A DNA stretch of 64,000 nucleotides from an uncultured Gemmatimonadaceae bacterium (GTDB taxonomy: Bacteria > Gemmatimonadota > Gemmatimonadetes > Gemmatimonadales > Gemmatimonadaceae): positions 96,001 to 160,000 of the forward strand of contig CAWHHI010000011.1 in NCBI GenBank assembly GCA_963829055.1, written 5' to 3'. The notes beneath the pieces are model-generated. The model was not told where the DNA came from and did not search any database. It was given only the letters and a program-made list of their open reading frames with translations. This document shows positions 21,069 to 51,840 of this stretch, piece by piece; position 1 is the first letter of the stretch, and every line of letters starts with the position of its first letter. Both the position numbers and the translations under genes were made by a program.

Positions 21069-21455
21069 CACGGCGAATGTGAACGCTCCTCGACGCGAGT
21101 GCAAGGACGATGACACGCCCGGCAACCCGCGCGGCAACAAGGCTGACTAATGTCCGGACATGACTCGTCCACTCGCTTGACTGGAGCGTCCGCATGAGCC
21201 GTCTCAAATCGTTTATTCTTGGCTTCCCGAGCATTGTCGGCGCCCTTCCGCTCGTGCCGTTCCTCCCGCAGGCAAATCCAGTTGCCATGGCGCGCAGGTC
21301 CCGCGGATCGAACGTCTCGTCGAGATCGGCGGACTCGGTGACGCGCGTCAATCGAGCGAATCCGGCGTCGGGTCATCCGACGGACGAGCAGCGATTCGTC
21401 TCGATCATCGGGCATACGGGCCTCGCTCGGAATGACAACCGCTCGCTCGGAATGA

Positions 21456-37174: not shown

Positions 37175-37948
37175 TCAAGCCGGCGGCTTACCGAGATTCG
37201 TTAGGCGCTGCTTCACCCGCGGGTCGTTAGGCCGCTTCGTCAGCGCCGCCTGATACCGCGCGATCGCCTTCTCCTTGTCGCCCTTCTTCTCGTAGATGTC
37301 GCCGAGCTGGAAGTCGATGTCCGCCGAGTTCGCGTTGAACTCCTGATTCATCAACAACAGCGAGATGGCCGCATCCGCCTTCCCACGCTCCGCGAGCGAG
37401 CGCGAGACCGAGTTCACCGGACCTTCCGTGAAATCGTACCGCCCGTTGCCCATGTTCTCGCGCAGCTTCCGGTAGCGCGCAATGGCGGAGTCGGGCCCGA
37501 ACTTGTCCACCGCGTCCGCGATCACCGTCTCGATCGTGCCCGGAATCGGCGACCCGCGATGGCATGTCACACACTGGATGTTCACGCCCTCGTGCCGCTG
37601 CGGCAGCGACGCCAGCGTGATGCGGTTCAGCGTGTCGACCATCGCCAGCATGAAACGCGCTTTCTGCTTCTCGATCTTGTCGTCGAGCGCCGGACGCATA
37701 CGCGGCCGGCCACCCGGCTGGGCGGCGGGCTCCTCGACATGACAGTACGCGCAGTTCACGCCGAGCGCATACGTGAACCCACGCATGTACGTGAGCAGCG
37801 TGTCCCGCGGAATGTCCTTCGGGAAGAACTTGAGGTTCTCGGGCGGCGGCGGTTGCTGCCCGCCGCCCTGCGCGAGGGCGGGCACCGAGGCGGACACGAG
37901 CGCGGCTGCGGCGAGTAGTGATCGACGGACGACGAGACGGACCACCAT
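37175..37948 (-). CDS. Diheme c-type cytochrome with C-terminal TPR
   Basis: Signal peptide, CAYCH and CVTCH heme motifs, ENLKFFP..MRGFTYALGV, TPR-like C-terminus. Confidence 0.88.
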   Translation of the reverse strand: MVVRLVVRRSLLAAAALVSASVPALAQGGGQQPPPPENLKFFPKDIPRDTLLTYMRGFTYALGVNCAYCHVEEPAAQPGGRPRMRPALDDKIEKQKARFMLAMVDTLNRITLASLPQRHEGVNIQCVTCHRGSPIPGTIETVIADAVDKFGPDSAIARYRKLRENMGNGRYDFTEGPVNSVSRSLAERGKADAAISLLLMNQEFNANSADIDFQLGDIYEKKGDKEKAIARYQAALTKRPNDPRVKQRLTNLGKPPA

Positions 37949-38105
37949 GAGAGACGACTCCTGGGTGCTGTCAGAAGAACTGGGACGAATCATTGCGGCA
38001 GGCATGATGGCGGCTGGCCCGGTCCTCGGCTAGATCGCGCCGACAGCCTTGCGGCGACGGGTAAGACGCGGGTGACGGCTCGACGTGGGCTCGGGCGCGC
38101 CACCT

Positions 38106-38748
38106 TCAGCGACGCATGAGCCGGAACGCGATGTTGCGCCCCATGCCACCGATCGCCATCGAGATCCACAGGATCGCGAGATGCTCGAGCTCCCGTGCGC
38201 GAATCAACGCGCCGGCGTCCACCGCATCGAAGCCGAGATCCGTCGCGAGCTGCGCCGTCTGTCGCTTGGCGCCCGCGTCGTCACCGGCATAGAACATCAC
38301 GCTGGGCACCCCGTCGTACACGGGATCGCGCATGTTCTCATAGCCGGTGGTGTTGAACGCCTTCACCACCTTCGCGTGCGGCACGAGTGCCTGAAGCTGC
38401 TCGGCGCCCGACGCTCCACCCTCGCCAGCGAGAAGCGTTAGGCCGCGGCCGATCGGGTTCGTCGCATCGATCAGCGTCACCCCGTCGAACGCCCCCGAGG
38501 CGGCGCCGGCGGCGAGCAACGCGTCGCGTGCCGCGTCCCAGGGCGTCGCGAGTACGACGACGTCCGCACCGCGCACGGACTCACTCAGCGGGGCCACTCG
38601 CACATTCGACGGGAGCGTCGTCGCTCCCTTTCACGTCGCCGCCGTCAGCGCCACGTCTCGAACCGAACGTCACATCGTGCCCGGCTGCGGCCCACCGCCT
38701 GCCGAGCGTCCCGCCGACGTTCCCGGCCCCGATCATCGTAATACGCAT
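38106..38748 (-). CDS. NADPH-dependent F420 reductase / NADP oxidoreductase family, frameshift near 38600
   Basis: IGAGNVGGTLG, IDATNP, SGAE, VVKAFNT. Confidence 0.88.
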
Positions 38749-38899
38749 AGTTCGCCGGACTCGTAGGGGTGCACACGGGTAGGCTAGCTGGGAGGCTAGC
38801 CGGCCATTGTCGCACTGGCAGGGCCCATCATACCACTCTACATTGGCGCTTGCCACGCTGATACCTCCCCGCGGTACGGTCCGCCCCTTCGGAGGCGCG

Positions 38900-41800
38900 T
38901 TGGAAGCTGCCAGACACCCAGGCTCCATTATCGCCAGTCGCTATACGTTAGAGCGCGAGCTCGGACGTGGCGGGATGGCAACGGTGTACCTCGCCCGCGA
39001 CAGCCGACACGACTCGCTCGTCGCGATCAAGATTCTGCATCCCGAATTCGCACCGTTGTTCGGCGGCGAGCGGTTCGCGCGCGAGATCCGCATCACGGCC
39101 GGACTGCAACACCCGAACGTCGTGCCGGTGCTCGACTCGGGGGACGCCGACGGCCTGCCCTTCTACGCCATGCCATTCGTCGACGGCGAGTCGCTGGCGA
39201 CGCGGTTACAGCGAGAGCATCAGCTCCCGATCAACGACGCGCTCGGCATTGCGGCTGAGGTCGCCGATGCGCTCGCCTACGCGCACGATCGCGGCTTCGT
39301 GCACCGCGACATCAAACCGCAGAACATCCTGCTGTCGAACGGCCACGCCGTGCTCGCGGACTTCGGCATCGCGCGCGCCATGGACGTCGCCAGCGGCGAG
39401 AACATCACCGAGTCGGGTGTCGCACTCGGTACGGCAATGTACATGAGCCCCGAACAGGGTTCGGGCGGAAAGGTCGACGGACGGAGCGACATCTACGCAC
39501 TCGGCTGCGTGTTGTACGAGATGCTGGCCGGCTCGGCGCCGTTCACGGGACCGACGTTGCAGACGGTGCTGGCGCGACACGCCGTCGATCCAGTGCCGCC
39601 GATCCGCACCGTTAGGCAGACGGTCGGTCCGGCGCTGGAGGAGCTGCTCGCGAGAACGCTGGCCAAAGTTCCCGCGGACCGCTTCTCGACGGCCCACGAG
39701 CTCAGGACCGCGATTGCCGGAGCAACCGCCGAGCAGGCGACGCTGCCGACGACGGCCGCCAGACGTGCATCGCCAACGCGCACGAACCGGCGGACCGCGA
39801 TCATGGCGGCGGTCGGCCTGGCAGTCGCGGCGATAGGCGTCTTGTCCTGGCGAGCGATCAGACCCGGCGCTGATGCTCTGGACCAGAATCGCATCGCGGT
39901 CTTTCCGCTGAGCCTACCCGCCGGATACACCGGCACCCGATCGTTAGGCGAGGACATCGCGACAATGATCGGCCATGCACTCGACGGAACCGGTCCGCTG
40001 CGCGCGGTGGATGGCTGGCGTCTGCTCGAGTCGCAGCCCGCCGCAGAACGCGTCTCGCCGGCGAACACTGTGCTGCGCACGCTCGCGCGCGAGCGTGGCT
40101 GCGCGTTCTACCTCGCGGGTAGCTTCGTTCAGCCCCCCGGTGATTCGCTGCGAGTGGTGCTTCGGCTGGTGGACGTGGCGAACGATTCGCTTGTGAAGAA
40201 GACGGAGGCGGTCGGCATTGCGGCGGATCCGTGGCGCGTCGGCGTTCGCGCCCTCAATCAGGTGCTGCCCACTCTCATACCCGCTGGCGCTGAGCGTGAG
40301 CTGGTCGCCGGTTGGCTCGACCGCGATCCTCAGGTGATCGCGACCTTCCTCCTTGGCGAGGCGGCGTTCCGTCGCGCGCGTCCAGCGGAAGCACTCGCGC
40401 GTTACCGCGATGCGCTGCGTTCCGACTCTACGTTCACGCTCGCGGCCGTGCGGGGCGCGCAAGCAGCAACGTGGGACCATCGACCGAGTGAGGCCGCGTC
40501 GCTGATCCAGGCGGCACTCGCGCAGCCCATGACTCCGCGTTATGCACACTTCGCTCGCGGCTACGCGGCGTACCTCCAGGGCAACGCCGACTCGGCCACC
40601 GCCGAGTTCCACGAGGTGCTGAAGGTCGATCCCGACATGGCGACGGCGTGGATGCAGCTCGGCGAGACGTACACGCATCTGCTGCCCGTGTCGGGCGACC
40701 CGACGCTCGCGGCGGACAGCGCATTCGCCGAGGCCATGCGCCTCGACCCGTCGGCGTCGCACATGTTGTTTCATCCGATCGAGATTCGGCTGCGCCGCGG
40801 CCAGACGCCCGAGGCCGCGCCGCTCATTCGCCAGTTCCTCGCTGCGGACCCCGACTCGACGCTCGCCGAGCAGATCCGGGTCATGGATGCGTGCGTGTCG
40901 CGTGGCCCCGAAAGCGTGGATTGGGCGAAAGCGATTGCCACTCGCCCGATGGCGGTGTTGTTCGCCGCACAGTCGCTCGCGGTGGCCGGCGCCCAGTTGC
41001 CGTGCGCAGCCGCCGCGTACACGGCCATTCGCGTCCACGAGACACCGGCGATGGCCGCCGCGGACCCGGTCGTCGACACGCGGCGCTGGACTGCGCTCGT
41101 GGGGCTGCAGGGCGTCCTGCTGGCTGAAGGACTCGCGGAACAAGCGGGTCTTCACGTCGACTCGGCGGTCGCACGCGGCGAGGGTGGCCATTCGGTGATG
41201 CTCATCGACGGTGCACTGTCGCCGGCTTTCGAGGCGCGTGCCGCGCAGGCGATGCGGAAATACGAGGCGCAGTGGGGACCGCGCTGCGAGCGCTGCACGT
41301 CCAACGACCGACTCTGGCAGCTCGGCGTCTGGGCGGGGCAGCAGCGAGACACCGCGTCGCTGCGCGCGTTGTCTGCCGCACTCAAGACGCGCGCGGATTC
41401 CACCGGAGCGCGGGGGGTGGCGCTCATGGCGCAAGCCACCGCGGCGCGTGCAGCACTCGCGCGCGGGGAGCTCGCGCCCGCAACGACGGCGCTCGAGGCC
41501 GTGCTGGCAACGCCCGTCGCGAGCGGCGGGGAACTATTATGGCGCGACGCGGAGGGCCGCGGCCCAGAGCGGCTGGCACTGGCGCGTGGGCTCATGCGGC
41601 AACGGCAGTTCAGACGCGCGATCGACGTTGCCGACGTGTTCGATTCGCCGGCGACGCAGACCTACGTCGCCTATCTCCCGGCCAGCCTCGAGCTGCGAGC
41701 TGCGGCTGCGGACTCGCTGGGAGACGCCTCGATCGTACCTCGCTATCGCGCGCGGATCGCGTCGCTCCGGGCGCTGGCGTCGGAAGCACCTCGGCCATAG
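38900..41800 (+). CDS. Membrane Ser/Thr kinase with C-terminal TPR-like region
   Basis: GRGGMATVY, VAIK, HRDIKPQN, DFG, MSPEQ; TM-like AIMAAVGLAVAAIGVLSW; TPR-like helices; TTG start after GGAGG. Confidence 0.92.
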   Translation: MEAARHPGSIIASRYTLERELGRGGMATVYLARDSRHDSLVAIKILHPEFAPLFGGERFAREIRITAGLQHPNVVPVLDSGDADGLPFYAMPFVDGESLATRLQREHQLPINDALGIAAEVADALAYAHDRGFVHRDIKPQNILLSNGHAVLADFGIARAMDVASGENITESGVALGTAMYMSPEQGSGGKVDGRSDIYALGCVLYEMLAGSAPFTGPTLQTVLARHAVDPVPPIRTVRQTVGPALEELLARTLAKVPADRFSTAHELRTAIAGATAEQATLPTTAARRASPTRTNRRTAIMAAVGLAVAAIGVLSWRAIRPGADALDQNRIAVFPLSLPAGYTGTRSLGEDIATMIGHALDGTGPLRAVDGWRLLESQPAAERVSPANTVLRTLARERGCAFYLAGSFVQPPGDSLRVVLRLVDVANDSLVKKTEAVGIAADPWRVGVRALNQVLPTLIPAGAERELVAGWLDRDPQVIATFLLGEAAFRRARPAEALARYRDALRSDSTFTLAAVRGAQAATWDHRPSEAASLIQAALAQPMTPRYAHFARGYAAYLQGNADSATAEFHEVLKVDPDMATAWMQLGETYTHLLPVSGDPTLAADSAFAEAMRLDPSASHMLFHPIEIRLRRGQTPEAAPLIRQFLAADPDSTLAEQIRVMDACVSRGPESVDWAKAIATRPMAVLFAAQSLAVAGAQLPCAAAAYTAIRVHETPAMAAADPVVDTRRWTALVGLQGVLLAEGLAEQAGLHVDSAVARGEGGHSVMLIDGALSPAFEARAAQAMRKYEAQWGPRCERCTSNDRLWQLGVWAGQQRDTASLRALSAALKTRADSTGARGVALMAQATAARAALARGELAPATTALEAVLATPVASGGELLWRDAEGRGPERLALARGLMRQRQFRRAIDVADVFDSPATQTYVAYLPASLELRAAAADSLGDASIVPRYRARIASLRALASEAPRP

Positions 41801-41868
41801 GAATCGCAGTCAGTACAGGAGTTGGTGGGCAGTAGCGAATGCAGGTTTCCATTCCTCGTGAGGAACAC

Positions 41869-42162
41869 ATGATCGATCCACAACAGGACCCGTTAGGCAC
41901 TGCGGCAAGCACACGCGAAGGACCGTCCGCACCACCGGCCAAGGGCGGCGATGGCCGCGAAGGCCCGTCCGCGCCGCCGATCGGCGGCGGCGAGGGACGC
42001 GAGGGGCCGTCCGCACCGCCGCTCAAGGGCGGGGAGGGACGCGAAGGCCCGTCCGCACCACCACTCAAGGGCGGCGAGGGGCGCGAGGGCCCATCGGCCC
42101 CGCCCATCGGCGGTGGTGAAGGACGTGGCGGGCCGCCGTCGCCGCCGCCGCGCACCACCTAA
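41869..42162 (+). CDS. 97-aa tandem-repeat protein, 5.5 x REGPSAPPxxGG(D/E)G; candidate multi-peptide precursor
   Basis: GAGGA RBS before ATG; 42-bp units from 41914 differ mostly at synonymous third positions in this frame. Confidence 0.85.
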   Translation: MIDPQQDPLGTAASTREGPSAPPAKGGDGREGPSAPPIGGGEGREGPSAPPLKGGEGREGPSAPPLKGGEGREGPSAPPIGGGEGRGGPPSPPPRTT

Positions 42163-42242
42163 CGCACGGATTCCCGGGTTGCTCGCGTCGCACCACGTGC
42201 GGCGACGCGAGCGCCCCTGCCACTCATCGACCACTCCGTCCC

Positions 42243-44333
42243 ATGACCACCGAATCGACTGCTGCGCCATCCGGTGCGAAGCGCGCCCTGCTCATCGGCG
42301 TGGACCAGTACCAGTCGCCGAAGATCCCGAAGCTCCAGGGGTGCGTGAACGACGCTGGTCTCATGCGGACCATCCTGCTCGAGCAGTTCGGCGTTCCAGA
42401 GGCAAACCTGACGCTGCTCACGGATGAGCGGGCCACGCGCGATGCGATTCTCGCCGCGTTCGACAAGCTCGTCGCCGACACGGGTGCCGACGACGTCGTG
42501 GTGTTCTACTACGCGGGTCATGGCTCGCAGATGACCGACCGCGAGGGTGACGAGGCGAGTGGGCTCGACAACACGATCATGCCGGTCGATAGTGAAGGCT
42601 GGTCGGGGATCAACCGCGACATCACCGACGACGAGATCCATCTCCGTCTCGTCGCGTTAGGTAAGAAGACGTCGTACATCACGCTCATCGTGGACGCGTG
42701 CCACTCGGCCACCATCACGCGTGATGCCTTCGGTGTGATGTCCCGCGGGGTGCAGGCGGACACGCGTCCCGTGTCGGAGCTGCCACCGTCGCCCATACCG
42801 CAGGCGGCCACGCGCTCGGCGTCCGGCGTGCGGAGCGAGAGTGGTCCGAGCGGCTGGATGCCACTCGCCGATCAGTACGTGCTGATCGCCGGCTGCCGCG
42901 ATGAGGAGACGTCGTTCGAGTATCGTCCACCCGAAGGAGACGGAAAGCTCGTACACGGCGCGCTCACGTACTTCCTGTCGCAGGAGCTCGGCCGCGCCAC
43001 GCCCGGCACGAGCTACCGCGACGTGTTCGAACGCGCGGCAGCTCGCGTCACCGCGAACAACGCCAGGCAGCATCCGCAGATGGAAGGGCGCGTCGATCGC
43101 GCACTGTTCGGCGTCGCCGATCTGCAGCCGATGCATTTTACGCGCGTGGTCTCACGAACCGGCGACACGGTGACGCTGGCCGCCGGCGCCGCCCAGGGGA
43201 TGACGGTGGGATCCGTGTGGGCGGTGTACCCGCAGGGCACCAAGCACACCGAAGGCGCCTCCGAGCTCGGGACGGTCGAGATCACCCAGGTGGGCGGCGT
43301 GAGAGCCAGCGCGCGCGTGACCTCGGAAACGACCCCGAATGCGATCGCGAGCGACACACGCGCGGTGGAGCGCGTGCACGCCTACGGCACGATGCGCATG
43401 CGGGTGCAGCTCGCGCCTAACGTGGCTGCCGCTGAAGCGCGCGGTGTGGCGCAGGCCAGGTCGCTGCGTGAAGCGCTGGCCGAATCGCGCCTCATCGAGG
43501 TCGTGGGCGCCGACGATGCCACCGCCGCCGCACGCATTTATCTCGTCGAGCCGCGCGCGGCCGCTGGGCCTGACGATCCGGTTCCACAGCTCGGCCCCGT
43601 CAGCGTTGCCGTGTGGGCCGTGGTCACGACGGACGGCCAGCTGCAGATGCCGCCCAAGCCGCTCGACGCGTTCGCGGAGGTGGGTGAGAATCTCGAGACG
43701 CTCGCCCGGTGCCGGCAGGCGCTCGACCTCGAGAACCCGAGCCCGACGAGCACACTCCGCGGCAAGTTCGAGCTCGAGCTGCTGCGTCGCGGTGCCGACG
43801 GCAAGTGGGTGGTCGCGCAGCCCGAAGTCGCCGGTGGTCTGCCGGTGTTCACTGACGGCGACGACATCGCGTTCGAGATCAAGAGCCGGCACGACGTCAA
43901 CGCGTTCGTGAGCCTCCTCGATTTCAGTCCGACTGGCGCCATCTCCCTCGTCTTCCCGGCGCCTAACGCCACCGATCAGATCACGCCCACGGTACGGTTC
44001 CAGATCGGGACGCGCGGTGGTGACGACGACTTCGCGGTGTCGTTCCCGTCGGGCTACCCTTATTCGGGTGGTTCGACGACTGCCCCGACGGACGCGCTCG
44101 AGACAGTAAAGCTGTTCGTGACGACGGCGCAGGCGGACTTCAAGTTCCTCGAGCAGCGCGGCGTCCGTGGCGTCGGCCAGTCTCCTGGTGGCGCGCTGCA
44201 ACTGCTGTGGGAGACGGCGGCCGGCATGGGGTCAATGCGCGACATCGGGCGTAAATCGGTGCCCGTGGACACCGAGGACTGGACGACGGTCGTGAAGCCG
44301 TTCACAGTGCGCCGCAAGCCGGCCGGCGCCTAA
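42243..44333 (+). CDS. Caspase-family (C14, metacaspase-like) protease with C-terminal DUF4384-like domain
   Basis: ALLIGVDQY, LQGCVNDA, YYAGHGS (His), IVDACHS (Cys), GALTYFL, QHPQMEG. Confidence 0.92.
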   Translation: MTTESTAAPSGAKRALLIGVDQYQSPKIPKLQGCVNDAGLMRTILLEQFGVPEANLTLLTDERATRDAILAAFDKLVADTGADDVVVFYYAGHGSQMTDREGDEASGLDNTIMPVDSEGWSGINRDITDDEIHLRLVALGKKTSYITLIVDACHSATITRDAFGVMSRGVQADTRPVSELPPSPIPQAATRSASGVRSESGPSGWMPLADQYVLIAGCRDEETSFEYRPPEGDGKLVHGALTYFLSQELGRATPGTSYRDVFERAAARVTANNARQHPQMEGRVDRALFGVADLQPMHFTRVVSRTGDTVTLAAGAAQGMTVGSVWAVYPQGTKHTEGASELGTVEITQVGGVRASARVTSETTPNAIASDTRAVERVHAYGTMRMRVQLAPNVAAAEARGVAQARSLREALAESRLIEVVGADDATAAARIYLVEPRAAAGPDDPVPQLGPVSVAVWAVVTTDGQLQMPPKPLDAFAEVGENLETLARCRQALDLENPSPTSTLRGKFELELLRRGADGKWVVAQPEVAGGLPVFTDGDDIAFEIKSRHDVNAFVSLLDFSPTGAISLVFPAPNATDQITPTVRFQIGTRGGDDDFAVSFPSGYPYSGGSTTAPTDALETVKLFVTTAQADFKFLEQRGVRGVGQSPGGALQLLWETAAGMGSMRDIGRKSVPVDTEDWTTVVKPFTVRRKPAGA

Positions 44334-44371
44334 CGACGGTCTCGCGTCGTCCCGAGGAGCGCCAGCGGGCT

Positions 44372-44490
44372 GTCATCCCGAGCGTCAGCGAGGGACCTTC
44401 TGTGAATGTAATCGTGGCCAGATCCGGCCACGATGACCTTACGAGAAGGTCCCTCGCTGCGCTCGGGTGCCGCTGGCTCCTCGGGATGAC
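44372..44490. repeat. REP-like palindrome family A
   Basis: GTCATCCCGAGCGTCAGCGAGGGACCTTCT...AGAAGGTCCCTCGCTGCGCTCGGG..CTCGGGATGAC. Confidence 0.85.
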
Positions 44491-44498
44491 GATGACAA

Positions 44499-47400
44499 TC
44501 AGCGCGTGCACCGTTGCGGGGGTCGTGACCCCGCCGGAGCGTCGACGATCCAGCGGTCGATCGATTCCTTCGAGTACGCGACCGCGCAGGCGCGCGCCAG
44601 CCACGCTTCCGGGTCCGTCAGGATGCGTACGATCTGTCCCGCTGCGTTCACCGCCAGCAACGCGCGACCGCTGTCGCCGAACGTGAGCCCCACCGCCTGA
44701 CCCTGCCCCGTTTCGATCTCCCCGATGATGTCGCCGCGCGCCACATCGCCGAGCGTCACCACGCCGTCCGTGTCGATCGCAAACAGGCGCCCATCGGGCG
44801 AGAGCGCGAACACATCGGGAGGCGGCCCCGATTTCCAGCGAAAGCGTGACGTCGGCTCGTGCCTGCCGCGCGTCCAGAACTGCACCATGAGGCCGTCGAG
44901 CGCCGCGACCACACTACCGTCCGCGCTCGTGCCCAACCCGGCGTACACTCCGATACCACTCAGTGAATCACGGACCCGCCTGGTCGCGAGATCCCACACC
45001 AGAATCGAAAACTGCGGTCCCTGCGTGACGAGCAGGTCTCCGCGCGGACTGAATTCCACCGGCGCGGGAAGGTTCGAATCCCAGAACTTGGGGCCGTTGT
45101 CGATGCCCGCGCGGAGAGTGTCCGCGGTCCTCGCGGCGAGATCCGCTACCACGACGGTGCGCGTACCCGGCAACGCGTACGCGACGCGTGCGGTCGATGC
45201 ATCCACCGCCACGGCAGCGTCCTTCGGGCTACCGACCAGCCGGTCCGGTGCGTCGCCGGCACCCTGAAACACGTACGCCGGCCCGCCGTCGCCATCGCTC
45301 GAGCCAGCGACGAGGAGACCGCCCGATGCACCGATGTACACATCCTGGCCGACGATGCGCCGGCGCGCCGCGCGGTCGTAGACGGCGCCGCGAACAGCGG
45401 GCGACGCGGTGATATCCCACACCGCGAGCTCGCCCCCAAACCCCCGTTGCGTCACCGCGAGCCTTCCATCCTTCGTTAGGCTCGTCACTTTCGTGGCCGT
45501 GTCGATGGGTAGCGCCGAGCGACGTATCAGTGCGCTATCGGCAAGATCCCAGACGTGAACGGTGCCCTCCAACGTGAGCGTCGCGATGCGGCCGCGCGTT
45601 CCGCTCACCACCAACACGTCGGGGATGTCGCCCGCCCCGTGCAGCGTGAGCGATGGCGCTCCCGGGTCCAGAGGCTGACTCGCGTCCAGGGGGCGCTCGA
45701 ACACGCGAACCTCGCCGTTCGGCGCAGCCGCCACCAGCGCCGCGTCGCGCTCCGTGAACGCCACGTCGCTGAACGTGACGCCAGTCATGAGACGTGCAGG
45801 CCGGTTCGACCGCAGCGGCCATAACGCGAGCGTATCTCCGGACGTCATGCGACCCGAGATGACCAGCGTGGAATTGTCGCGACTCACGGCGACGCCGGGT
45901 GGGAGAAAGCGAGAGCCGCCGCGCACGGTCCGCACCAGTTTCCCCGTCGCGACGTCCCAGACGCTGGTGCGCCCATTGTCCGCCATCGTGACCACGAGCG
46001 AGCCGTCCGTGCTGAACGCCGCTGGGAACGGCGGACTCGTGTGCCCGACGAGACGACTGCGCGAGCGCCCTGTCTCGAGGTCGAACAAGACCACGTCGTT
46101 GCCCTCGCCAACGGCAACCACGTGGCGCCCGTCGGCCGTTGGCGGTCCCACCCGCCAGGCGAGCGATTCCGGCCAGCTGGTGCCTGCCACGGGTGTCTCG
46201 CCTAACGACAGCGACAGCGAGTCGGACACCGCGGCCGCAATCGCCGCGGCCTTCGTCTTCTTCGCCTCGCGCAGCTCGGCTTCGCTCCACCGGCGCACCG
46301 GGACCTCACCCAGCTTTCGCCCCGTGGCCGCGTCCCACACGCGGAGCGTCGCGACGTCCGACGTCGAGTCACCCGAGACCGAGCTATACGTCATTCCGCT
46401 CGCGTCGAGAGTGACGGCGTTGCGATTCACCTCGGCCGGAAACGCCGTCTGCCGCGTTTCTACTCCGGTCGCGACGTCCATCGTGTAGATGCCATCGGGC
46501 CCCACGAGGAGCGCCCGCTCGCCATCGGGAGCAAACACCAGCTTCGTTCCGCCAGTGGAGGTCACGCGTACCAGCGTTGGGTCGCGCGCGAGCTGCGTGA
46601 ACAGCGCGCGCCGCGCCTCGAACGTCGGCGACTGCTGGTACGACGCGACGGCGTAGAGGAAGCCCAGGTCGCGTTGTTCCGGATCTGCTGACGATGCCCG
46701 CGCGCCCCACTCGCGCGACGTGCTGTCGGCGAGCCGAGCCTGCGATTGCCGATACAGAATCCAGCTGCCGACGCCGAACGCCGCGATGAGCGCGGCCGCG
46801 GCGATCGCACCGCGAACGACCCACGCGCGACGACGTCGTGCCCGATCGCGTTCGACGCGACTCGCCGCGACGAGCGCCCGCTCCTCGTCGTTCCACGCAC
46901 GCATCCCGCTCTCGCCAGTCTCGACCACGGCCAGGTCCGCCGCATCGAGTGGAATCCCGACGTGGCCATCTTTCCACTCGGCCGACCGCCCATCGAGCAC
47001 GCGCTTCGCCCTCGGCCCTGGCAGATCGGAGCGATCGAAGCGGTCGCGGACGATTGGCGCGAGTGTATCGTGGGCGAGGCGCGCCGTCGGATCCGCGAGC
47101 GGTGCACCGGTATCGTCGGTGTCGCGCACGACCAGGAGAAACAGTCGCGCGCACATCGCGCGAAGCCCGGGCGCCGTCTCGTTCGCGTGCGGATAGCGCT
47201 TGCTCTCTTCGCTGGCCGAGTGCTCGTCGGACGTCGCCTTGGGCGTCGTATAGAAGCGGAGGAATTCGAGCGCGAGACCGGAATCGACCGCCGCGGCATT
47301 CCAGGTGCGGAGCGCCTCCAACTGCTGCGTCACGAAGCCGTCGAGCTGCTTCGCTTTCGCGCGCACCGTTTCGTACAGCGCGGCGTCGAAGCGGACGACG

Positions 47401-49143
47401 TTCGCGGGACTGCCCTTCCGAGGCGCATCGGCCCACAGCTCCGCGAGCAGGATCTGCAGCAGCGGCGCGACGTGCGACGCGCGATTCGCGAGCAGATCGT
47501 CGGCGATCACGACGTCGAGCCCAGCCTCGAGCTCGAGACGCGTTGGCATTCGTCGCGCGGGAACGCGCGTTGGTCCGGTGATCGCCTCCAGCACGCCGCC
47601 GCGTGTGAGCTGCTCCAGGCGATGCTCGGTGCGAGCAACGCGGTGCGCCTCGAGCGCGCCCTTCACTTCCGACAGCCACTCCTTCCGGAATCCGAGTACG
47701 AGTCGCCCACGTGGGCGCGTCGCAGGCGTCGCGAAGAGATTCGCGATGGCGGCGGCGAACGCGTCGAGCTCACGCGCGCCGCTGCCTGCCGCGACGCGTC
47801 CCGCATCCTCGCTCGTGTACGCCTCCTCGAGCTGGTCGACGACGACGAACAGCGGTCGCCCACACTGCGCCTCGACGGCCCGCCACCGCTCGGCCACGGC
47901 CTCCGCGTCCGTCGCACGAGTGGCCTCGACGCCGAGCGTCGTGGCGAGTGTGCCGAGCAACCCGAGCGCGCGGTCGCGAGGCGCGTAGCGGACTTCGTGA
48001 GTACTCGTTAGGCGCGGCAGCAGCCCGGCGTCGAGCAGCGACGACTTGCCGACACCGGTCGCGCCGTACAGCAGCACCACTGACTCGGACGCCGCGCTCG
48101 TGACCTTGTCGTACAGCTCGCGAATGTCCTTGCCGCGTCCGAAGAACAGCTCCGCGTGCTTGCGGCTGAACGGACGCAGGTGTCTGAACGGCTCGGTGAG
48201 CGGCTCGTCGGTTTCCGGTAGCGTCGGCAGGCCGAACAGCGGATTTCCCGCAGCTTCGGGGAGCGCCCATGGACCGACCGTCTCCTCCGCGCCGCGCCGG
48301 AAGTAGAGGTCCCATGGCCAGCGTCCGTCGTCGGTCGTGACCGCGCTCTTCCGGCCAATGTCGCGGCTGCCTGACGATTCCGGCGCTGGTTGCACCACCT
48401 GCGACGCTGCGTCCGCGGAGGCGTGCATCGAGTCCGCCGTCGAGCCGCGGGCTGACCGCTCCGTGCTTGAAGCGAACGCCTGACGCGGCCTCGTCGTACG
48501 CGCGCTTGATGCCCGCCCCGCTTCCGAGTCCCTGATACAGCAGCACCGCGAACTGATGCGCGATCGCATCCTCGACGCTCCGCGACGTCGCCACCACGGC
48601 ACCAACGCCGGCGTCGCGGAGCGCGTCGACGTGCGCCTGTGTTGCGCACGCGTTGAGCACGACGAGCTGCAGCCCACGCTGACAGCCGAGGAACGCGGCG
48701 AGACCACTGGCATCGGCGACGGCCGTGGTGCCATCGGCGGTTTCGAACAACAACCCTTCTGGCCCGGCATGTCCCGCGAAGTGCAGAACGCCGATCCGGT
48801 CGCGATACGCGTCGTTCTGAAAGACGCGCATCACCTGCTCCGGCGTCGCATCCGGCAGCGTAACGACCTCGCAGATGCCGCCGCTCTGTGCCTCGCCGAG
48901 CGCCGCGACGATGTCGTTGAGCTCGAGGCTCAAGCTCCGGAGATGCCGCGCCCCCACAGCCTCGTTCGCGGTCGCGACGAGAATGACGGGCGCTCGACGC
49001 TCTACCGGTGCTGCGGTGGACGTCGACGCGTCGAGTGTCGGAGACGCGGGAGCGACGGTGTCTATGGGTTCCTTACGCTGGGAGCGGACAGGATACGTTA
49101 GCGCGGGCTGCTGCGTGCCGGAAGCGTCCGCCACTCCAGGCAC
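44499..49143 (-). CDS. CHAT protease + STAND (nSTAND1-like) NTPase + TM + WD40 protein, frameshift near 48450
   Basis: VLHFAGHA / VVLNAC CHAT dyad; FFGR, GATGVGKSS Walker A, VVDQLEE Walker B, LAHDTLA; TM; WD40 repeats (GHTSPPFPAAFSTDG..VWD); start uncertain. Confidence 0.88.
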
Positions 49144-49164
49144 TCATACCGATCTGATTTCTGG

Positions 49165-49476
49165 AACAGCAGGACAGGACGGCCAGGATGGGCTGGATGA
49201 CGGCAACTGCAACTACAACTACATGACAGGATTGGCAGGATGGACAGGATTGAACAGAGGCTCCGTGTCGCGCCCAACGCCCCTCCCGCAACGAGCCCAG
49301 TATGAGGGGAACGGCCGCTCGGGACGCCACTCGCCCTGAGATGTGTTCCTTCATTCGTTAGGCCCCGGCGACACGCGCCCCGACGCCGAGGCGGTCATCT
49401 TCTCAATCCTGCCAATCCTGGCCATCCTGTCTTGCGGTTGCCGTTCCGCGGTTGCCGTTCCTGTCAATCCTGTCAC
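49165..49476. repeat. Inverted arrays of 9-mer (ACAGGATTG-like) repeats around a family B core
   Basis: ACAGGATTGGCAGGATGGACAGGATTG ... AATCCTGCCAATCCTG..CAATCCTGT; a similar structure lies at 53748-53836. Confidence 0.7.
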
Positions 49477-49489
49477 CGCTGCAGTTGTC

Positions 49490-51840
49490 CTACTGGCTCA
49501 CCCCACGCGAGTCACTCACCGGCAAGTGCTCGCGCAGATATCGCGTGAGCAGCGAATACAGGTGCAACGACGTCCCCTCCCCTTCGCAGATGCAGTGCGT
49601 GCGGTTCGGGTAGGCCATCATGGTGAACGGCTTGTTCGCCTTCACCAGCGCGTTGACGAGCGCTTCCGTGTTCTGATAGTGCACGTTGTCGTCGCCGCTC
49701 CCGTGCACGACCAGCAGGTCTCCCTTGAGTTGATCCGCGAACGTCACCGGTGAGCCGTTCTTGTAGCCCTCCGGATTTTCCTGCGGCAGCCCGACGTACC
49801 GCTCCTGATAGATCGTGTCGTAGTAGTGAAGGTCGGTCACGGGCGAGACCGCCATGCCCATCTTGTACACATCGGGCGTGCGGAACATGACGTTGAGCGT
49901 CGTCGCTCCGCCGCCGCTCCAGCCCCATACCGCGAGCCGCTGCGGATCCACGAACGGCCACTTCCCGATCGCGCGCGCGGCCGCTGCCTGATCGCCGCCA
50001 TTCAATACGCCCATCCTGTTGTAGATGGACTTCCGCCACTCGCGCCCGCGCGGCGCCGGCGTGCCGCGATTGTCGACGCTCATGACGATGTACCCCATCT
50101 GCGACAGCATGAGATGCCACAGATACGTGCCACCGCCCCACGAGTCCACGACCGTCTGCGACGCGGGCTCGCCATACACGTGGAACAGCACCGGATATTT
50201 CTTCGTCTGATCGAAGCCGGGCGGCTTGATCATCCATCCGTCGAGCTGCACGCCGCCGCCGATGTCCACGCGGAAGAATTCGCGCGGGCCCTGCTCGAGT
50301 CCGGCGAGCTTCGCTCGGAGCGCCGCGTTGTCCTGCAGCACTCGAACGCGACGGTGATCGGGGAGCGTGATGATCTCGACCGTCGGCGGGGCGCCGAACG
50401 ACGACCACGTGTGCACCGCATAACGCCCGTTAGGCGAGAGGAGATACGCGTGCGTTCCCGGCTGGTCGGCTGGGGTGACGCGCGTCGTGACACCCGGCTT
50501 CTTGAGCGACGTCCGATACAGGTAGAGCTGCGTCGGGTTCTGCGGCGACGCGTAGTGATAGAGATACTCGCCCGTCGCATCCGGGCCTAACACGGCAAGC
50601 GCGCCGAACGCGGACGCCGGATGTGAGACGTCCATCGCGTCCGCACTGAGCGGCGTGACGGTCGCGCCGTCGCGCGTGACGCCGTACATGCGCCGCCAGC
50701 CGCTGCGCTCGCTCATCCAGACGAACCGACGGTCGGCGTCGATCCAGCGCACGTCACTCACCACATCCACCCACGCCGAGTCACGCTCGGTGAGCACGGT
50801 GCGGACGGCGCCTGTGCTCGCGTTGGCGAGCAGCACATCGATCTGGTTCTGACGCCGGTTGAGTCGCTGGATCAGTAATTCGCTCGAGTTCTTGTCACCC
50901 GCCCAATCCATGCGCGCGAGGTACTGATTACGCGGGTCTCCATCGATGGCGAGCCATCGTGTCGCGCCGCCGGCAGCCGGGATGACGCCGATGCGGCCGG
51001 CGGAGTTCGTGGTGCCCGCTTTCGGGTACTGCACCGGATTCACGAACGAGTACAGCGAGTCGGTGTCGTCGATGAGATTGAAGTTCTTCACCCCGCTCGC
51101 GTCGAGCTGCCAGAACGCGATCGACTTGCCGTCCGGGCTCCAGCGGAAGCCGTCGCGAAGGCTCAGCTCCTCCTCGTATACCCAGTCGAACGTGCCGTTG
51201 ATGATCGTCCGCGACCCGTCGCGCGTCAGGCGCGTGATGGCACCGCTGGCGACGTCCTCGACGTAGAGGTCGTTCTGGCGCACATACGCGACGCGTCCGC
51301 CGTCGGGGGAGAACTTGGCGAACATGAGCGTGGACGCCGGCGCGTCGCCGCCGAGCTTGCGAAGGCCACGAGTGCCGAGGTCGAGCACCCAGTAGTCGCC
51401 GCGGGTGTTCTGCCGCCAGACCTTCTCCGACGCGGTGAAGACGAGGAGTCGCTTCCTGTCCGACGACCAGTCGTAGTCTTCGACGTCGAGCGGCGCGGCC
51501 GCCCCGTTAGGCGTGAGCCACGTCGTGGGCACGATGACGTCGCGCGCGCCCGTCCTGCGCATTGAACCGCGCCAGCTCAGCCGCCCCGGGCTGCTGCGGA
51601 TTTCCCTGGAGCGCGACGTACGTCGAGTCATTCAGCCACCGAAGCTGCCCGGCGCCACGCGCGGCGAACTCGCCGGACGCGAAGATGCGCTCGAGCGTGA
51701 GACGGCTCGGGCTCGACGAAGCCGGCGGTGTGGCCTGGGCGCCGGCGTGGGCAGACGCAATCAGCGCGATGGGGGCGATCAGAAGGGCACCAGCCAGCGC
51801 GGCGCCTCGAATGCGTGTGGGACACGGGCCGTATTTCCAA
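49490..51840 (-). CDS. S9B dipeptidyl peptidase IV family, frameshift near 51560
   Basis: GWSGGG nucleophile motif, DWVYEEE, HGSGDDNVH, RTHC; start approximate. Confidence 0.92.

Follow-up and report, generated by a model that had tools for sequence, protein, structure and literature searches.

A putative accessory island of an uncultured Gemmatimonadaceae bacterium joins a receptor-type kinase and an Arg-delimited repeat micro-protein to a metacaspase-like protease

The window analysed in this study is a stretch of 64 kb with a GC content of 67% from an uncultured soil Gemmatimonadaceae bacterium (assembly GCA_963829055.1, contig CAWHHI010000011.1, positions 96,001 to 160,000); all coordinates refer to the window. 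Its region from ~37.9 to 49.5 kb (11.6 kb) may represent an accessory island that codes for a membrane-spanning conflict-type system, with a putative role in defence or in kin signalling. The core of this system, a soluble metacaspase-like C14 protease and a CHAT-nSTAND1-WD40 protein with a transmembrane (TM) helix, is of an already known kind. Attached to this core is a two-gene cassette from Gemmatimonadota, which codes for a receptor-type Ser/Thr kinase and then for a small Pro-rich protein (the micro-protein), and of which no description was found in the literature searched. In the caspase-linked lineage the micro-protein seems to have become a tandem array of units of 12-14 residues, each bounded by a single Arg. 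We tentatively propose, as something possible but short of probable, that the adjacent protease, with its specificity for Arg/Lys, has this array as a dedicated substrate and cuts it at multiple sites, that its Pro-rich unit binds to the kinase, and that the island as a whole is a STAND/CHAT/metacaspase conflict-type system.

The positions of the open reading frames (ORFs) agree with the original prediction, which had been made from the window sequence, of three co-oriented genes on the forward strand separated by gaps of 68 and 80 nt, and Pfam together with sequence reading confirmed the domains and catalytic motifs that it had assigned, with matches below the cut-off for the TPR and WD40 regions (Table 1). 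The unannotated gene between kinase and protease codes for a 15-residue acidic head, five 14-residue Arg-delimited units rich in Pro and Gly (41914-42123) with the consensus REGPSAPP[AIL][KG]GG[DE]G, and a degenerate sixth unit, RGGPPSPPPRTT. Tandem Repeats Finder (TRF) reports a period of 42 with 4.3 copies and 81% matches (41913-42092) and, with the translation, supports the earlier claim of about five near-identical Arg-delimited units in a protein of 97 residues. Of 96 nucleotide differences between units, 72 fall into codon position 3 (14 and 10 into positions 1 and 2), and three of the four population variants in the gene are also in third position. The ATG is preceded by GAGGA. That the micro-protein is translated is strongly supported by these features and by the conservation of its position and frame in related loci, and the near-identity of its units as protein at 81% DNA identity resembles the pattern of multi-copy peptide precursors.

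About 19 nt past the stop codon of the micro-protein begins a GC-rich hairpin. The intergenic fold has a minimum free energy of -33.5 with a z-score of -2.06. In related loci, z-scores of -2 or below were obtained for 23 of 34 folded intergenic regions, and comparable hairpins are present in most. By analogy, the hairpin resembles those which follow abundantly expressed precursor genes.

Members of the micro-protein family are nearly always missed by gene callers. A word-indexed protein search with the micro-protein returned no match, not even the ORF of the window itself. When 1.84 billion representatives were searched exhaustively, 23 matches were obtained at E <= 0.001, with a single credible called homolog (P0129, 111 residues); six of the 23 were judged by sequence, five of them being unrelated low-complexity repeats, and the other 17 by the match table only. 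Pfam has no family for the micro-protein of the window, and none was assigned to 19 small ORFs even at E <= 1. In the array forms no hydrophobic N-terminal segment was seen that could be a signal peptide, and the island codes for no transporter. The array was also considered as a proline-rich antimicrobial peptide, but this reading was dropped since its units carry no net charge. Lipoprotein-type N-termini of three distant small ORFs (L175, L177, L179) might have indicated a periplasmic location, but these were rejected as evidence because there are alternative internal starts.

The protease contains a Peptidase_C14 domain (106.7 bits, cut-off 21.4) at residues 13-283. Its catalytic dyad, His93 (YAGHGSQ) and Cys153 (DACHS), is invariant in 48 homologs, and the His/Cys motifs are intact, as predicted. 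Equally invariant in these homologs are D37 and D151, which align with GCINDA and DSCHSG of solved metacaspases and which we take, from structural work on TbMCA2, to be the acidic S1 pocket that selects Arg or Lys. The AlphaFold2 (AF2) model (predicted local distance difference test score, pLDDT, of 81) has AtMC4 as its top Foldseek match (E 1.8e-13), and C. glabrata MCA1, Yca1, TbMCA2 and GSU0716 follow in the range from 1e-13 to 1e-10; MALT1 was also found. A phmmer search against the PDB matched chains of Yca1 type at ~1e-20; in the alignments, YAGHG pairs with the His motif and DACHS with the DSCHSG motif of metacaspases, including Yca1 and AtMC4. On the basis of sequence and model, the protease is metacaspase-like, with a predicted cleavage specificity for Arg/Lys. 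Its C-terminal region of ~400 residues is conserved and beta-rich and contains a DUF4384-like stretch that scores below the Pfam cut-off.

When the caspase family was compared in full-length alignment, at least 560 proteins and 355 stretches in one-genome-per-species contigs were found to match, from Gemmatimonadota, Acidobacteriota, Chloroflexota, Rhodothermota, Scytonema, a Methanoperedenaceae archaeon and Paraglaciecola. The gene neighbourhood was surveyed for 141 caspase loci, 62 of them from protein matches and 79 from one-genome-per-species contigs. A homologous kinase, tail included, is encoded directly upstream on the same strand in 36 of these, and in every one of them a small Pro-rich ORF separates the two genes (29 with clear arrays, three with degenerate arrays, and four with an N-terminal helix and a single C-terminal unit). 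In nine further loci the small ORF is present and the contig ends before the kinase region. A repeat array was found in none of the 43 kinase-less loci with a full-length caspase and at least 3.2 kb of upstream sequence. The check suggested with the original prediction, whether small Arg-delimited repeat ORFs are found together with kinase and caspase across genomes, was thus clearly positive (a small Pro-rich ORF in 36/36 loci with kinase, an array in 0/43 without).

In 28 periodic arrays, every consensus unit of 12-14 residues contains exactly one Arg, at least one Asp or Glu, and at least two Pro. Beyond this, unit sequences vary widely, as illustrated by REGPSAPPIKGGEG, REGAPPPPPGGG, RGDITPPPPPEEG, RTGDSPPPAAKG and RDPQPKPTEAID and by the further divergent units REGPPAPPIASDG, REGATAPPPAGG and RGDGDTPPPAPPPK. 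Copy numbers differ even between near-identical loci (7 vs 6 in L019 and L038, 6 vs 7 in L143 and L146). Nineteen of the 28 units contain Ser/Thr, often as [ST]-[AP]-P-P, and nine lack Ser, Thr and Tyr altogether. Phosphorylation of the peptides by the kinase, which had been suggested as one of their possible roles, can therefore not be a general mechanism.

The association of the caspase with CHAT and nSTAND1-WD40 proteins, also part of the original prediction, recurs in this family and, in relatives, in operon orientation. The genes for kinase, array, caspase, CHAT and nSTAND1-WD40 follow each other in this order on one strand in L147 and L145; the order is kinase, array, caspase-DUF7379, CHAT in L076 and L100, and caspase-DUF7379, CHAT, nSTAND1-WD40 in kinase-less loci such as that of the complete Rubrivirga chromosome (L134).

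Loci were also collected from the side of the kinase. This set comprises the 28 best loci, with L181 left out as it stems from an unpublished genome. In 20 of these 28, a Pro-rich small ORF begins within ~50 nt past the kinase stop codon, whether a caspase follows or not. Seven of the 20 have arrays delimited by Arg, one has an array without Arg, and twelve consist of a Trp-containing helix plus a PGG..PPPPPK[FWY]PP tail, a form that was counted in 13 loci and aligned for 12. When 28 of these genomes were searched for PF00656, a C14 gene was found within 7 kb of the kinase in six of the seven genomes with Arg-delimited arrays, the seventh locus being cut by a contig end. The caspase is adjacent in four of these genomes. 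One has a different C14 protein, of 444 residues, encoded 3.7 kb downstream; in the sixth, the gene immediately upstream of the kinase codes for a C14-nSTAND1-WD40 protein, and there is another, divergent C14 gene. The contig end of the seventh truncates an upstream nSTAND1-WD40 gene. In contrast, no C14 gene occurs near the kinase in any of the 21 genomes with an Arg-less small ORF, and the PF00656 search returned no C14 protein at all for 17 of them. Tandem Arg-bounded arrays are thus accompanied by a linked C14 protease, which may also be of another subfamily (G176, G224). The form of the micro-protein varies with the presence of the protease, while the micro-protein itself is always paired with a receptor-type kinase. 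That every unit has one Arg, and that Arg arrays are linked to C14 proteases, would fit cutting at each Arg.

The kinase belongs to the Hanks type, with a Pkinase domain of 156.9 bits (cut-off 31.7) and the motifs VAIK, HRD and DFG. Translation is assigned to start at the TTG at 38900, which has a GGAGG 4 nt upstream and places Pkinase at residues 15-266, matching the homologs. In PADLOC, the kinase matches PD-T4-6 models (E 7.5e-94, residues 39-324 of 997), and this match covers the generic kinase domain only. TPR matches at residues 578-690 are below the Pfam threshold. The AF2 model of the 626-residue tail (pLDDT 92.7) consists of a small alpha/beta domain and about 12 TPR-like repeats, with structural resemblance to the TPR superhelices of TTC7B, OGT/SPY and Tom71. 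According to this model the tail is confidently predicted to be a TPR superhelix, which is a fold type that holds extended peptides. It has two invariant Cys residues. The tail is single-copy in its own genome and was found in 47 of 301 phylum genomes sampled, corresponding to 31 of 128 genera. The kinase domain itself behaves differently at the DNA level: segment 38952-39577 has dozens of matches per genome at 68-72% identity in all genomes of the genus (G000-G006), which points to a very large family of Ser/Thr kinase paralogs.

The convergent gene codes for CHAT (51.7 bits, cut-off 24; motifs HFAGHAG and LNACAT) and nSTAND1 (117 bits, cut-off 27.1; P-loop GATGVGKSS). Fourteen propeller families match its WD40 region, each below its own cut-off, and the orthologs in L145, L023 and L134 pass PF00400. 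While the predicted CHAT-STAND-TM-WD40 domain order and the caspase-clan dyad of CHAT are present, the gene is not a single intact frame in this assembly. An extra base near 48452 puts CHAT (frame of 49143) into another frame than nSTAND1-TM-WD40 (frame of 48770). In a metagenome contig of 98% identity (L015) the gene is open over 1565 residues without a break, the ortholog in L018 is also intact, and the extra base is absent from contigs of three other runs (X1, X2, X9) from three studies. The frameshift is therefore probably an assembly error or a strain-private lesion. A TM helix between nSTAND1 and WD40 is kept in five proteins, and stand-alone CHAT proteins also have a TM helix. It is predicted that the CHAT protease and the nucleoside triphosphatase (NTPase) face the cytoplasm and that the WD40 propellers point outward. 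In the system as a whole, the kinase tail, the propellers and immunoglobulin-like domains would be located outside the membrane, and the kinase, NTPase and CHAT domains, the C14 protein and the micro-protein inside.

In the mechanism that we propose, the protease would cut after each ...GG(E/D)G-R and release about five near-identical 14-mers (EGPSAPPxxGGxGR), and the TPR groove of the kinase would bind the Pro-rich unit. An extended version, which we regard as quite unlikely, is an alarm-peptide circuit: the STAND/CHAT protein would fire, the metacaspase would chop the array, cell death or leakage would release the 14-mers, and the TPR domain of the kinase on kin cells would detect them, allowing a response before the attack. 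Precursor, processing protease and receptor kinase of such a circuit would all be encoded in one 11.6-kb island.

Several observations weigh against the array being a protease substrate that is sensed by the kinase. The micro-protein follows the kinase even where there is no caspase, which makes the kinase its primary partner, and the hairpin separates it from the caspase. A distant array (L182) is devoid of Arg, and Arg is common in a genome with 67% GC. In a FastTree tree of 97 caspases, all 29 kinase-linked rows fall into one clade of 50 rows (support 99) and none is found among the other 47; the arrangement is thus old and largely inherited, and the co-occurrence counts are not independent. 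As the TPR and WD40 regions are predicted to be outside and the micro-protein lacks a signal peptide, sensing would need export or lysis. Finally, the antisense frame across the repeat (41610..42158) is also open and shares its third codon positions with the sense frame, so that the codon-position argument alone cannot choose the strand. The sense strand was chosen because of gene position, the ATG with GAGGA, the population variants and, above all, conservation across loci.

The association of Arg arrays with C14 proteases and the rule of one Arg per unit would also fit an array that is not consumed. It might be a multivalent pseudosubstrate of the metacaspase, its inhibitor or antitoxin, or a scaffold that gathers its monomers, with each Arg docking in the S1 pocket. 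Copy numbers that differ between near-identical loci fit valency more than dosage, and the micro-protein is predicted to be cytoplasmic, as is the protease. However, the small ORF accompanies the kinase in 21 genomes without a nearby C14 gene, which argues that it is not primarily a partner of the protease. The hairpin between micro-protein and caspase is a further point against this reading, and the strong purifying selection on the whole unit exceeds what a docking Arg would need. We consider this explanation unlikely.

The link of Arg arrays with C14 in six of seven genomes, compared to none of 21 for Arg-less forms, is left unexplained if the micro-protein is a partner of the kinase only and is never cut. 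It could then be a ligand or co-sensor of the TPR domain, or a cytoplasmic docking or phosphorylation partner; the Arg would be part of a binding motif and the adjacency of the caspase would reflect shared regulation. This is also an unlikely explanation in our view, even though it is favoured by the small ORF right after the kinase in 20 of 28 kinase-centred loci with or without caspase, by the peptide-binding fold type of the TPR superhelix, and by the Ser/Thr residues of 19 of the 28 units with their frequent [ST]-[AP]-P-P motif. The nine units without a phospho-acceptor do not fit, and the topology problem for TPR binding holds equally.

Strong polyproline stretches (APP, PPP, PPG) are present in most units, and together with the strong hairpin, which recurs in related loci, they might suggest that the ORF is a regulatory leader in which ribosome stalling and the hairpin set caspase expression and the peptide itself is irrelevant. 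This is very unlikely. With 60-130 residues the ORFs greatly exceed leader peptides in known cases, no reason would be given for the invariant Arg or for the acidic residues, and units of the RDPQPKP type lack Pro-Pro. In four loci the genes are a mere 4-12 nt apart and the hairpin is missing, and ORFs of this family are also found behind kinase genes that have no caspase gene after them. That the repeat is no gene at all but a non-coding tandem DNA repeat, or that the open antisense frame is the real one, is hardly credible despite the failure of gene callers to record the ORF and the empty word-indexed search, because orientation, position and head-array-tail layout are shared by at least 36 loci whose DNA has diverged strongly, the ATG has a Shine-Dalgarno-like site, one member (P0129) has been called as a protein, the antisense ORF would overlap the 3' end of the kinase gene, and there is no Rfam match.

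The proposal that the array is cut by the protease and bound by the kinase can be compared with the plant damage circuit of PROPEP1, metacaspase 4 and the PEPR receptor kinase (PMC13330819, 10.1101/2020.03.09.983940). The island resembles this circuit in a metacaspase-fold protease of predicted Arg/Lys specificity (AtMC4 being the top structural match), a candidate precursor with Arg junctions, and a receptor kinase that crosses the membrane once and has repeats in its extracellular domain. However, precursor and ectodomain are non-homologous, with TPR in the island and leucine-rich repeats in the plant. The candidate precursor of the island is a tandem multi-copy array, the genes for all components are neighbours, and no route of export was recognised. 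MC4 reportedly cuts PROPEP1 after Arg.

Islands with caspase, CHAT and STAND proteins are a recognised class of bacterial conflict systems; here, a candidate dedicated substrate adjoins the protease. Bacterial Apaf-1 orthologues combine N-terminal caspase-like proteases with WD40 sensors (Nature 2026, PMC13581612), nSTAND1 and CHAT occur in putative conflict systems (PMC10907252), and NTP-dependent conflict systems have been surveyed (Kaur et al. 2020 eLife, PMC7159879). Kinases are mentioned as effectors in actinobacteria in this literature (PMC7159879, PMC13581612, PMC10907252). In the accessible text of PMC7159879, the terms "proline-rich", "tandem repeat", "Gemmatimonad" and "DUF4384" have 0 occurrences. 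With these systems the island shares caspase-clan effectors (C14, CHAT) that are joined to or encoded beside nSTAND1 with predicted WD40 sensor repeats, as well as an accessory nature and a patchy spread. It differs in the TM helix between nSTAND1 and WD40, which is predicted to put the propellers outside, and in having a separate soluble C14 protein with a C-terminal region of 400 residues plus an extra cassette of kinase and micro-protein. A triad of kinase, Arg-delimited micro-protein and metacaspase was not found described in the accessible literature, supplements aside.

Gasdermin systems, type III-E Craspase with Csx30, and type IV Thoeris also have a caspase-clan protease beside a putative target in an immunity-type locus. 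In contrast to these, the candidate substrate of the island is a repeat micro-protein and not a pore-former or an anti-sigma partner. The single-gene anti-phage kinase PD-T4-6 has only the kinase domain in common with the island, and lacks the TM helix, TPR tail and partner genes. Multi-copy precursors that are cut at basic residues are exemplified by yeast alpha-factor with Kex2, neuropeptide precursors, and multi-core precursors of ribosomally synthesized and post-translationally modified peptides. Common features are tandem near-identical units bounded by basic residues, a protein sequence that is kept despite DNA divergence, a non-repeated head, and a degenerate last unit. However, the island array has neither signal peptide nor leader-recognition domain, there are no modification enzymes, and the candidate protease is a cytoplasmic metacaspase and not a subtilisin. 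If our proposal is correct, the island could be the first bacterial case in which a eukaryote-like receptor kinase is coupled to a peptide signal that a protease sets free. Should the idea of such a peptide prove wrong, the small proteins linked to the kinase would still represent a family that is a new annotation for Gemmatimonadota.

Table 1 Features of the island and its surroundings in the window. Coordinates are window positions; the last column gives the basis of the assignment or a remark.
Feature	Coordinates	Strand	Basis or remark
F420-dependent NADP oxidoreductase remnant, split	38106..38928	-	two ORF pieces = C- and N-terminal parts of PF03807
Hanks-type Ser/Thr kinase	38900..41800 (longest ORF from 38807)	+	Pfam, TM scan, AF2
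Kinase parts: kinase domain; single TM helix; alpha/beta domain + TPR superhelix	~38942-39697; 39794-39850; 39920-41797	+	Pfam, TM scan, AF2
Unannotated micro-protein, 97 residues	41869..42162 (alternative ATG 41839)	+	ORF, TRF, conservation in related loci
GC-rich hairpin, perfect stem of 11-12 bp	42180..42213	+	between micro-protein stop and caspase start
Metacaspase-like C14 protease, 696 residues	42243..44333 (domain 42279-43091)	+	Pfam, AF2, Foldseek, phmmer
REP-like (repetitive extragenic palindromic) nested palindrome	44368..44470	.	convergent intergenic region; not a system component
CHAT (48475-49026) - nSTAND1 (47205-48191) - TM (46770-46826) - WD40 propellers (44502-46612)	44499..49143	-	Pfam, TM scan
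MITE-like (miniature inverted-repeat transposable element) repeat, 245-280 bp	49166..49460	.	right edge of indel block

The boundaries of the island are evident from genomes of the same genus. In G001, G002 and G006, the sequences that flank it in the window (37175-37884 on the left and 49518-51705 on the right) are only 250-330 nt apart, which shows that the region from ~37.9 to 49.5 kb has been gained or lost as a single insertion/deletion unit. The caspase is found in none of the six same-genus genomes examined. The indel block contains the split F420-oxidoreductase remnant, which is probably a pseudogene outside the system, in addition to the genes for kinase, micro-protein, caspase and CHAT-STAND protein. 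Pfam and PADLOC scans and the gene content of the island revealed no gasdermin, CRISPR or TIR genes, and PADLOC assigned only generic kinase and caspase models. No Rfam family matches in 37500-50000, and a scan for consensus promoters and terminators gave nothing useful. Genes for DPP-IV/S9 prolyl peptidases adjoin two Pro-rich peptide loci, one in the window (49493-51631, reverse strand) and one in L125 (2063-4189). The peptidase of the window was considered as a trimming enzyme but was rejected, as its gene is part of the conserved flank in island-less genomes, and its proximity to the Pro-rich locus is thus probably due to chance.

Some further variation was seen in related loci. DUF7379 occurs as a C-terminal extension of the caspase, giving a form of 1170 residues, or as the product of a separate neighbour gene (L023, L145 vs L075, L076, L100, L101, L134). 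This suggests that it is a further component of the system, without counterpart in the island of the window. In L121, from the Methanoperedenaceae archaeon, a caspase homolog of 1264 residues is preceded by genes for baseplate-J, tail-P2-I and a DUF4384 protein that stands alone, and is followed downstream by a C14-BACON-FGE-sulfatase protein; these surroundings could be a contractile-injection-like context. In L103, L092 and L093 (Longimicrobiales, Gemmatimonadales), R-G-D-PPPPPP units are fused within the same small ORF to long Lys/Ala-rich repeats that resemble histone H1. Behind a distant kinase homolog, L186 (G300:C172), there is an array without Arg (DPIGPGGPPA x5), and at a greater distance a TPR-S plus trypsin-like peptidase takes the place of the caspase. 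An Arg directly before the tail of the helix-plus-tail forms was considered as a marker of caspase linkage, but proved to be weak when judged by eye (5/5 caspase-linked vs 4/11 caspase-less forms).

Two repeats were noted within the island or at its edge. The MITE-like repeat is located exactly between its last gene and the conserved flank. It has inverted ends of ~30 bp (GACAGGATTGGCAGGATGGACAGGATTGA and its complement) and, including itself, 39 matches in the genome. The REP-like palindrome has a contig depth of ~995, compared to ~10, in the sediment metagenome run X1 and shows many loose ends there, and this element is therefore very abundant across organisms. A motif that resembles it, GTCATTCCGAGCG...CGAGGAATC, is also found in the L017 hairpin and in a TRF match at 21422.

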